This document shows positions 58,224-59,093 of a stretch of 64,000 nt of DNA, piece by piece; position 1 is the stretch's first letter, and the number at the start of each line of letters is the position of its first letter. A program made the translations under genes and the position numbers. Source of the stretch: an uncultured Gemmatimonadota bacterium (GTDB taxonomy: Bacteria; JAAXHH01); assembly GCA_951812955.1 (NCBI GenBank), contig OX638340.1, positions 2,816,001 through 2,880,000 of the forward strand, given 5' to 3'. Below the pieces are notes generated by a model, which worked only from the letters and a program-made list of their open reading frames with translations, was not told where the DNA came from and searched no databases.

Positions 58224-59093
58224 ATGTCATCCAACGGGGCGTTTATCATAGACAAGAACCTGGGCGCGCGCCTGGACGAGACCCAGGCGGATCTGCCGAA
58301 GGCCAATTCCGATGGCGAAGCGGTCGTCCCGCCGACGGATGAACAGAAATACCTGTTCGACAAGGACGGCTGGCTCCTGTTGCCCGGGGTGCTGTCCGAG
58401 GCCGAATGCGTGGAGATGCGGGCGTTCTGCCTGCAGTTGCACCATGATCCGGAGTCCATCCCCGAACCCGAGCGTTCTGTCCTCGGCGGACCATTACAGC
58501 GCCTGACGGACCACCCATTGGTGGTGGGTTTCATGAACGAATTTCTGGCCTACCCCGGCCTGTCCAGCCAGATTTGCTACGGTTTCCGTCAGGAATCTGC
58601 CAGTTTATTCTACCGGGAATCCGGTGACGGCGCCTTCGGCCCTCATAACGGCAACGGCATGCTGCGTTTCCCGGGCGACTCCCATCTCTACCGCTGTATT
58701 CCTGGCAAGGCCAACTCCGCGCTGACAAGGGTGGTCTGGGAACTGAACCCGGTCACGGAGGGGAACGGAACGCTGCTGGTATCCGGAAGCCACAAGGCCG
58801 TCTTCCCCGCGCCGCCGTCCATACAATCGCCGGACTCGCCGATCTGGAACACCTATACCTGTCCGCCAGGATCGTTGATATTCTTCACCGAGGCCCTCAC
58901 CCACAGCGGCAGGCCCTGGATCGACGAGGAGCATCCGCGGATCGCCGTCTTCAGTTGCTACAACTCTGTCAACAGCAAGTGGCACAACTGGGACCCGCAC
59001 CCCGAGCTTCTTGCTTCCATGCCGCCCCTCAGACAGACCCTCTACCGTCCGGTTCACGTGGCTGGCAACCTGGTGGGTGGCGAGGTACACTGA
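58224..59093 (+). CDS. PhyH-family Fe(II)/2OG oxygenase-like protein with atypical H-x-G first metal motif
   Basis: 289 aa. YLFDKDGWLLLPGVL (PhyH N-terminal block). GPHNGNG sits where the paralogs have WHQD/WHHD. Distal LLVSGSHKA. Confidence 0.7.
   Translation: MSSNGAFIIDKNLGARLDETQADLPKANSDGEAVVPPTDEQKYLFDKDGWLLLPGVLSEAECVEMRAFCLQLHHDPESIPEPERSVLGGPLQRLTDHPLVVGFMNEFLAYPGLSSQICYGFRQESASLFYRESGDGAFGPHNGNGMLRFPGDSHLYRCIPGKANSALTRVVWELNPVTEGNGTLLVSGSHKAVFPAPPSIQSPDSPIWNTYTCPPGSLIFFTEALTHSGRPWIDEEHPRIAVFSCYNSVNSKWHNWDPHPELLASMPPLRQTLYRPVHVAGNLVGGEVH

Follow-up and report, generated by a model that had tools for sequence, protein, structure and literature searches.

A PhyH-fold protein with a conserved H-x-G motif in a Gemmatimonadota genome is probably an oxygenase with a HygX-type iron site

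The 64,000-nucleotide window analysed here, positions 2,816,001 to 2,880,000 of contig OX638340.1 from an uncultured Gemmatimonadota bacterium, contains an open reading frame (ORF) at 58224-59093 on the forward strand. It starts with ATG and encodes a PhyH-fold protein of 289 amino acids, designated here the H-x-G protein. The match to the Pfam family PF05721 (PhyH) covered residues 45-231 and, at 27.1 bits, cleared the gathering score of 22 by a small margin. The H-x-G protein lacks the canonical H-x-D/E...H facial triad of PF05721 enzymes, yet the double-stranded beta-helix fold, the distal His and the Arg that likely binds 2-oxoglutarate (2OG) are all conserved. A sequence-only reading of the window had proposed that the protein resembles the Fe(II)/2OG halogenases and may bind a halide at iron. 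Our analysis indicated instead that it is probably an active Fe(II)/2OG oxygenase of the PhyH fold that carries out oxygen-based chemistry at an iron site of the type described for HygX, the Fe(II)/2OG oxygenase that forms the orthoester of hygromycin B in Streptomyces hygroscopicus. The gene and the residues on which this proposal turns are located as follows, with the basis of each assignment in parentheses.

58224 to 59093, forward strand: gene for the predicted PhyH-fold Fe(II)/2OG oxygenase with a non-canonical triad (ORF, Pfam, AlphaFold2 [AF2] model, homologs)
58644 to 58652, forward strand: H141-N142-G143, the favoured proximal iron His with Gly where Asp/Glu would be expected (translation, conservation, AF2 strand, MAFFT)
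58647 to 58688, forward strand: loop 142-155, NGNGMLRFPGDSHL, which includes D152-S-H154 and contains the 12-residue insertion of the sequence-only reading (translation, AF2 model, conservation)
58728 to 58730, forward strand: R169, aligned to HygX Lys137 (HMMER profile alignment, conservation)
58785 to 58796, forward strand: G188-S-H190-K191, the conserved PhyH 'PGSHK' motif, predicted not to supply the distal iron ligand (HygX, EctD, paralogs)
58890 to 58904, forward strand: E223-A-L-T-H227, the E-X3-H element with the putative relocated carboxylate ligand and distal His (HMMER alignment to HygX, conservation)
58938 to 58940, forward strand: R239, the Arg that likely binds the C5 carboxylate of 2OG (start of strand 239-248, conservation)

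A search of an index of 5.8 billion proteins returned 716 homologs of the H-x-G protein at E <= 1e-3, the best 120 of which were 64-98% identical to it, and a filter-free search returned 659 cluster representatives (50% identity) at E <= 1e-3, of which 57 reached E <= 1e-30. Residues were counted on 270 retrieved sequences aligned to a family hidden Markov model (HMM), as 120 close homologs plus the distant representatives that cover each column. H141, N142 and G143 were invariant in the 120 close homologs. Position 143 was occupied by Gly in 74 of 82 distant representatives, by Ala in four and by Val in one, with a single His, Arg and Tyr that may be misalignments, and none of the 202 homologs covering this column carried Asp or Glu. 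The H-x-G motif is a real, selected feature and not a product of chance or a sequencing artefact, because H141-N142-G143 is invariant in close homologs and position 143 is never acidic. The sequence-only reading had noticed H-x-G in place of H-x-D in a single translation, and the replacement proved to be family-wide.

The other residues of the predicted iron site were conserved to a similar extent. All 120 close homologs carried E223, H227, R239 and R169, and among the distant homologs Glu was found at position 223 in 73 of 76 (193 of 196 in total), His at 227 in 67 of 71, Arg at 239 in 69 of 70 (189 of 190 in total) and Arg at 169 in 71 of 79. H154 was invariant only in the close family (His in 43/79 distant relatives). 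When 24 close members were aligned, H141, N142, G143, D152, H154, R169, H190, E223, H227 and R239 were all invariant; with relatives of 29-59% identity added, H141, E223, R239 and H190 stayed invariant and H227 nearly so, position 143 became Gly, Ala or Val, and D152 and H154 were lost. Apparent losses of H141 were mostly due to misalignment within a subclade bearing the motif P-H-V-V-R-P-P. In a separate subgroup of four sequences (P0123, P0153, P0172 and P0184) the distal His is replaced by Gln or Arg (T-E-S-x-T-Q), and in one of these H141 is replaced by Asn as well; this subgroup may be inactive or functionally shifted.

HygX was the nearest solved structure both by sequence and by fold, with three methods ranking it first in the PDB. 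When the single protein was searched against the PDB, the sole matches were the HygX entries 4XC9, 4XCA, 4XCB and 4ZPI (E = 3e-4). In the family-profile search HygX was again the best match (E = 1.8e-19), with an E-value twelve orders of magnitude below that of the next PDB entry, and was followed by DhiD (8ZYB, 3e-7) and the ectoine hydroxylase EctD (5.5e-7). In both HMMER alignments, T-E223-A-L-T-H227 was aligned with N-E202-A-L-M-H206 of HygX at high posterior probability, and L-T-R169-V-V-W-E-L was aligned with Y-V-K137-A-L-V-Y-L. HygX residues were numbered from the 4XC9 chain, and K137 in this numbering falls exactly on the Lys named in a 2026 review (PMC13374393). According to that review, the crystal structure of HygX revealed an 'H-X-G E-X3-H' triad in which the acid is relocated and its original position is Gly, Lys137 fills the gap left by the carboxylate near the iron, and the enzyme forms the hygromycin B orthoester in vitro (PMC13374393).

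The resemblance to HygX extends beyond the predicted metal ligands. Both proteins have a PhyH-type double-stranded beta-helix, a proximal His that opens an H-x-G motif, a distal His preceded at a distance of four residues by Glu (E-x3-H), a basic residue where HygX has Lys137, a 'GSHKA-FP' motif and a beta-hairpin insert between H-x-G and the next core strand. Both also have an Arg 11-12 residues past the distal His; R239 lies 12 residues past H227 and the corresponding HygX Arg lies 11 past. In human PAHX, H264 and R275 are likewise 11 residues apart. In contrast to HygX, to which it is 21-25% identical, the H-x-G protein has Arg rather than Lys at position 137, about 10 extra residues leading up to the proximal His, a shorter loop downstream of that His, and a conserved N-terminal extension with a KNLG motif. 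The two also differ in setting: HygX is a Streptomyces enzyme, whereas the family of the H-x-G protein is found in metagenome-assembled genomes (MAGs) of Gemmatimonadota/Latescibacterota-like bacteria, Poribacteria and Caldilineaceae. No orthosomycin, aminoglycoside or other biosynthetic cluster was found in more than 80 loci, where the neighbours were catabolic-type enzymes and transporters.

The window also encodes two canonical PhyH paralogs, both of which provide a comparison for the distal part of the site.

39477 to 40322, reverse strand: canonical PhyH paralog with WHQD...PGSH (motifs)
62402 to 63313, reverse strand: canonical PhyH paralog with WHHD...PGSH, upstream of the fusion gene described below (Pfam PhyH, 34.5 bits; motifs)

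As the sequence-only reading had stated, WHQD and WHHD are present in the paralogs with PGSH 37 residues on: PGSH starts 35 codons past the Trp in both, and the His-to-His distance is 37 residues. The corresponding distance in the H-x-G protein is 49 residues, which bears out the 12 additional residues noted earlier. Canonical PhyH hydroxylases, that is human PAHX, EctD, KanJ and the two paralogs, share the fold, a PGSHK-type motif, the position of the distal His and the 2OG-binding Arg with the H-x-G protein. Unlike it, they have H-x-D and a non-acidic residue at the position of E223. That residue is Ser in EctD (profile alignment) and Pro and Gln in the two paralogs by hhalign, although the probability of the hhalign alignments between the family and the paralogs was just 2-3%, which makes them useful for the distal-His block alone. 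The WHQD paralog gave a partial, sub-threshold match to the NCBIfam model TIGR01762 ('chlorinating enzyme'). Beyond the three PhyH-family genes, the window encodes a further 2OG oxygenase, a 494-amino-acid protein of the TauD/TfdA family (44839-46323, reverse strand) with an N-terminal extension of about 200 residues that has no Pfam match.

The profile-HMM alignment to EctD, which had been suggested as a check by the sequence-only reading, reassigned the distal ligand. His248 of EctD (3EMR) aligned with H227, which lies 37 residues past H190, and not with H190. The EctD positions, counted from the alignment, were H146 and D148 in WHSD and H248 in NTMHGS, which we take to be the published iron ligands of the enzyme. 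Because EctD His248 aligns with H227, the distal ligand is predicted to be H227 and not H190. The His in VSGSH190 was thus rightly equated with that of PGSH in the paralogs, but the role of distal iron ligand that had been given to it was not upheld. The GSHK motif is found as well in HygX (QGSHKANFP), EctD (PGSHN) and both paralogs.

H141 is favoured as the proximal iron His. In a MAFFT alignment HygX His102 was placed on H141, so that H102-G-G104 of HygX lay over H141-N-G143. H141 is favoured because it is the only family-wide conserved His upstream of strand III and stands at the end of a suitably placed short strand, and because the R131-H141 spacing of 10 residues is close to the K135-H146 spacing of 11 in EctD. 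Several observations weigh against the proposed HygX-type site. A gapless HMMER alignment placed HygX His102 on E132, a variable position, and the H-x-D of EctD (HMMER) and of the WHQD paralog (hhalign, probability 2%) was placed on P150-G-D152, so that support for H141 as the proximal His comes only from MAFFT, the pattern of conservation and secondary structure. The ligand role suggested for E223 draws on homology to a protein of just 21-25% identity, and the description of the HygX triad comes from a review-level source (PMC13374393). Moreover, the gene context of the family varies by phylum, and a phospho-lyase fusion encoded next to the gene in this window occurs alone elsewhere.

The AF2 model, built from a 45-sequence alignment, had a mean predicted local distance difference test (pLDDT) score of 91 and a predicted template modelling (pTM) score of 0.91. 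Confidence within the core was lowest in block 141-150 (pLDDT 72) and block 151-160 (pLDDT 80). Strands were predicted at 121-131, 138-141, 156-159, 162-165, 168-173, 183-185, 217-222, 227-229 and 239-248; H141 ends the short strand 138-141, H227 starts strand 227-229 and R239 starts strand 239-248. In the model, the strand lengths fit a double-stranded beta-helix. Judged from strand lengths, and not from contacts in the model, the long pair 121-131/239-248 would be strands I and VIII of the major sheet and the short pair 138-141/227-229 would be strands II and VII of the minor sheet. Loop 142-155 has no regular secondary structure in the model and is probably a substrate or lid loop. A Foldseek search of the PDB with this model gave HygX chains as its top 14 matches (E ~1e-12), followed by FtmOx1, DhiD, SptF and GriE.

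These comparisons suggest how the site might be arranged. The proximal His, H141, would be followed by Gly, and the carboxylate would have moved to E223, four residues ahead of H227, giving the pattern H-X-G...E-X3-H. Two His, one Glu and bidentate 2OG would fill five positions on the iron and leave the sixth for O2; because all six would then be occupied, no site would be available to a halide. R239 would anchor 2OG. R169 would lie in the space of the missing Asp, at the position of HygX Lys137, where it would probably contact the substrate or tune the ferryl. The chemistry expected of such a site would be hydroxylation, oxidative cyclisation or cleavage, and not halogenation. The substrate might be a small amine-bearing metabolite such as an amino acid, amino alcohol or amino sugar, as is hinted at by the neighbouring genes, since enzymes dependent on pyridoxal phosphate (PLP) are the commonest class of immediate neighbour and adjoin the gene in several unrelated contexts.

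We weighed the HygX-type oxygenase against three other readings of the same residues. A true Fe(II)/2OG halogenase or anion-binding enzyme, with halide at iron beside Gly143 as in SyrB2, CytC3, WelO5 and BesD, would account for an H-x-G motif that is real and conserved and that agrees with the H-x-G/A pattern of such enzymes, and record titles place the host organisms in halide-rich marine and sponge habitats. This reading is nevertheless highly improbable. The near-invariant E223, at the position of the HygX Glu ligand, would by homology occupy the halide site, whereas the Fe(II)/2OG halogenases (SyrB2, CytC3, CurA-Hal, WelO5 and BesD/HalB) are described in the literature as having no substitute carboxylate. 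Some relatives carry Val at position 143, and we know of no halogenase reported with Val at the equivalent position. Sequence similarity between these halogenases and the family was not detectable: no halogenase chain appeared among the 57 PDB family-profile matches at E <= 1, and TIGR01762 gave no match to the H-x-G protein at E <= 1. There was no halogenase among the top 50 Foldseek PDB matches. In a structural ranking SyrB2 was placed 16th and WelO5 50th, far below HygX, and the halogenases came out lower than many hydroxylases. The more than 80 loci likewise contained no carrier protein, nonribosomal peptide synthetase or biosynthetic cluster. The halide-binding enzyme proposed by the sequence-only reading is therefore disfavoured by the conserved E223 at the HygX Glu position, by HygX as nearest structure and by the lack of a halogenase profile or TIGR01762 match.

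That reading had also allowed for a different carboxylate ligand, with D152 as an example. The general idea agrees with the role suggested here for E223, but a carboxylate from the inserted loop, D152 instead of E223, is a distinctly unlikely source of the ligand. The residue is invariant in the 120 close homologs, and HMMER set EctD H146-S-D148, and hhalign the H-Q-D of the paralog, on P150-G-D152. These alignments were of very low confidence (hhalign probability 2%) and put Pro at the His position, Asp occurs in just 22 of the 80 distant relatives in which H141, E223, H227 and R239 are retained, and nowhere in its core is the AF2 model less confident than in this loop. It is also unlikely that the protein is catalytically divergent and perhaps not a 2OG oxidase at all, in which case it could have kept the fold as, for instance, an isomerase dependent on iron or a binding protein. 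The Pfam PhyH score barely above cut-off (27.1 against 22), the few family members without H227 (Gln or Arg) or H141, and the presence of a non-oxidative PhyH-fold enzyme, the endoperoxide isomerase NvfE, among the weaker profile matches are consistent with such divergence. However, H141, E223, H227 and the putative 2OG Arg R239 are all conserved family-wide, and a sequence identity that stays at 64-70% between phyla points to a functional site under strong purifying selection.

When species-representative genomes were scanned, relatives of the H-x-G protein turned up in 283 stretches, and their taxonomy was broken down for the best 80 of these 283. MAGs labelled Gemmatimonadota/Latescibacterota, with genomes of ~3.7-3.9 Mb and in several cases sponge-derived by isolate name, encoded relatives of 75-98% identity. 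Relatives were 66-71% identical in Poribacteria and 66-69% identical in Caldilineaceae and other Chloroflexota, and single relatives were found in MAGs labelled Zixibacteria and Opitutales. Between phyla (Gemmatimonadota/Latescibacterota-like, Poribacteria and Chloroflexota) the orthologs were 64-70% identical over their full length. Such identity is unusually high for orthologs from different phyla and points to strong constraint, to horizontal spread among sponge-associated or aquatic bacteria, or to both. Kamke et al. (2014) reported that PhyH outnumbers every other Pfam family in the genomes of Poribacteria and that its functions there are largely unknown (PMC3909097). The family of the H-x-G protein is one defined and testable subfamily of this PhyH expansion in Poribacteria and other sponge symbionts. 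In the literature found, the relocated-carboxylate triad has so far been described only in HygX, an enzyme of antibiotic biosynthesis. With HygX as known precedent, what is new here is the breadth of the H-X-G...E-X3-H signature in a large conserved family that lies outside biosynthetic clusters and is carried by uncultivated aquatic and sponge-associated bacteria. For genome mining, H-x-G alone is an unreliable flag for halogenases, and the position four residues before the distal His needs to be checked as well.

In this window the H-x-G gene lies between a dehydrogenase gene and a convergent fusion gene.

56615 to 58153, forward strand: L-piperideine-6-carboxylate (P6C)/2-aminoadipate-semialdehyde dehydrogenase, separated by a 70-bp gap from the H-x-G gene downstream (NF050084 equivalog, 776.8 bits against a cut-off of 730)
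59194 to 62319, reverse strand: fusion of an aminoglycoside phosphotransferase (APH)-type kinase, a peptidase M23 domain and a class-III PLP enzyme (AT3), 1041 amino acids, convergent neighbour (Pfam, 6TOR, NF004799)

The PLP domain of the APH-M23-AT3 fusion was closest to human ethanolamine-phosphate phospho-lyase (PDB 6TOR, E = 2.4e-154). NF004799, the family of the fusion, is annotated 'hypothetical protein' and is widespread over many phyla, where it usually occurs alone. The order P6C dehydrogenase, H-x-G gene, convergent APH-M23-AT3 fusion and canonical PhyH was found in ~27 related MAG loci with varying flanks, and was kept in a more distant group of 78% identity without the upstream FG-GAP and ANT-like genes. 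On a contig labelled Zixibacteria (L032; 77% identity), cut by the contig end, the H-x-G gene is followed by an aldo-keto reductase gene and a convergent phospho-lyase gene.

Other phyla had different neighbours. In 22-25 Poribacteria loci the H-x-G gene directly follows a class-III aminotransferase resembling glutamate-1-semialdehyde aminomutase (GSAM) and is faced by a divergent gene for a 457-amino-acid fusion of PhyH and HEAT repeats. This three-gene unit (for example L001 4547-5920 on the reverse strand and 6763-7962 on the forward strand, and loci L037-L085) has variable downstream genes and looks like a conserved module. In eight Poribacteria loci the H-x-G gene has a pair of canonical PhyH genes upstream of it and a gene for a class-I/II aminotransferase downstream. 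Neighbours in Caldilineaceae were either P450, cupin and GFO/IDH/MocA proteins or two Zn-dehydrogenase-like proteins with a sugar-type ATP-binding cassette (ABC) transporter. A D-Ser-dehydratase-like PLP enzyme was encoded next to the gene at L033, GFO/IDH/MocA and ThuA proteins in Opitutales, and a sulfatase and a thiamine pyrophosphate (TPP) enzyme at L051. A 367-amino-acid protein upstream of the H-x-G gene in Latescibacterota (L026, L028 and L029) was considered as an APH-like kinase and rejected, as it showed no similarity to Pfam, the PDB or the APH domain of the fusion.

The mammalian route that turns 5-hydroxylysine into 2-aminoadipate consists of hydroxylysine kinase, 5-phosphohydroxylysine phospho-lyase and ALDH7A1. 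The gene set in this window appears to resemble this route with two oxygenases added. The H-x-G protein and the canonical PhyH might act together at the start of a pathway, not described so far, by which sponge symbionts would convert lysine or collagen-derived (glycosyl-)hydroxylysine to 2-aminoadipate. Oxygenation would be followed by a hydroxylysine-type kinase and phospho-lyase (the APH-M23-AT3 fusion) and then by the P6C/aminoadipate-semialdehyde dehydrogenase. In favour of this idea, the block is intact in the ~27 MAG loci despite changing flanks, and the H-x-G gene lies near a phospho-lyase gene at L032 as well. Against it, the link between the fusion and the H-x-G gene is lineage-restricted and weak elsewhere, and the context differs between phyla. 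No aldehyde dehydrogenase (ALDH), PhyH or H-x-G gene was found near the fusion gene in Caldilineaceae, KSB1, Ktedonobacteraceae or a JGI metagenome contig, and for this reason we lowered our estimate of the pathway, which we regard as unlikely. A literature search on bacterial 5-hydroxylysine catabolism found nothing relevant.

Several smaller features of the surrounding sequence were recorded. Directly upstream of the dehydrogenase gene, 55619-56479 (forward strand) encodes a 286-amino-acid protein that matched PF04439, streptomycin/aminoglycoside 6-adenylyltransferase, with 253 bits and stayed under all NCBIfam ANT(6) equivalog cut-offs; the gene is kept in the close lineage and absent from the 78%-identity group (L003). 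The 100-bp spacer between the convergent stops of the H-x-G gene and the fusion gene contains two tandem copies of the 18-bp unit GGGATTGCCGATC(A/G)AACA at 59124-59159. A promoter and terminator scan of 55400-63600 gave counts no higher than those of shuffled controls. Further away, a 1099-amino-acid ORF at 21006-24305 (forward strand), directly past a TonB-dependent-receptor-like gene (17920-21012), had no Pfam match at E <= 1e-5. The gene at 49490-51547 encodes a helicase of the XPB/ERCC3 type that includes a damage-recognition domain, and the next one, at 51551-52801, a DUF790 protein; both are on the forward strand, and this pair is kept upstream in all related MAG loci.

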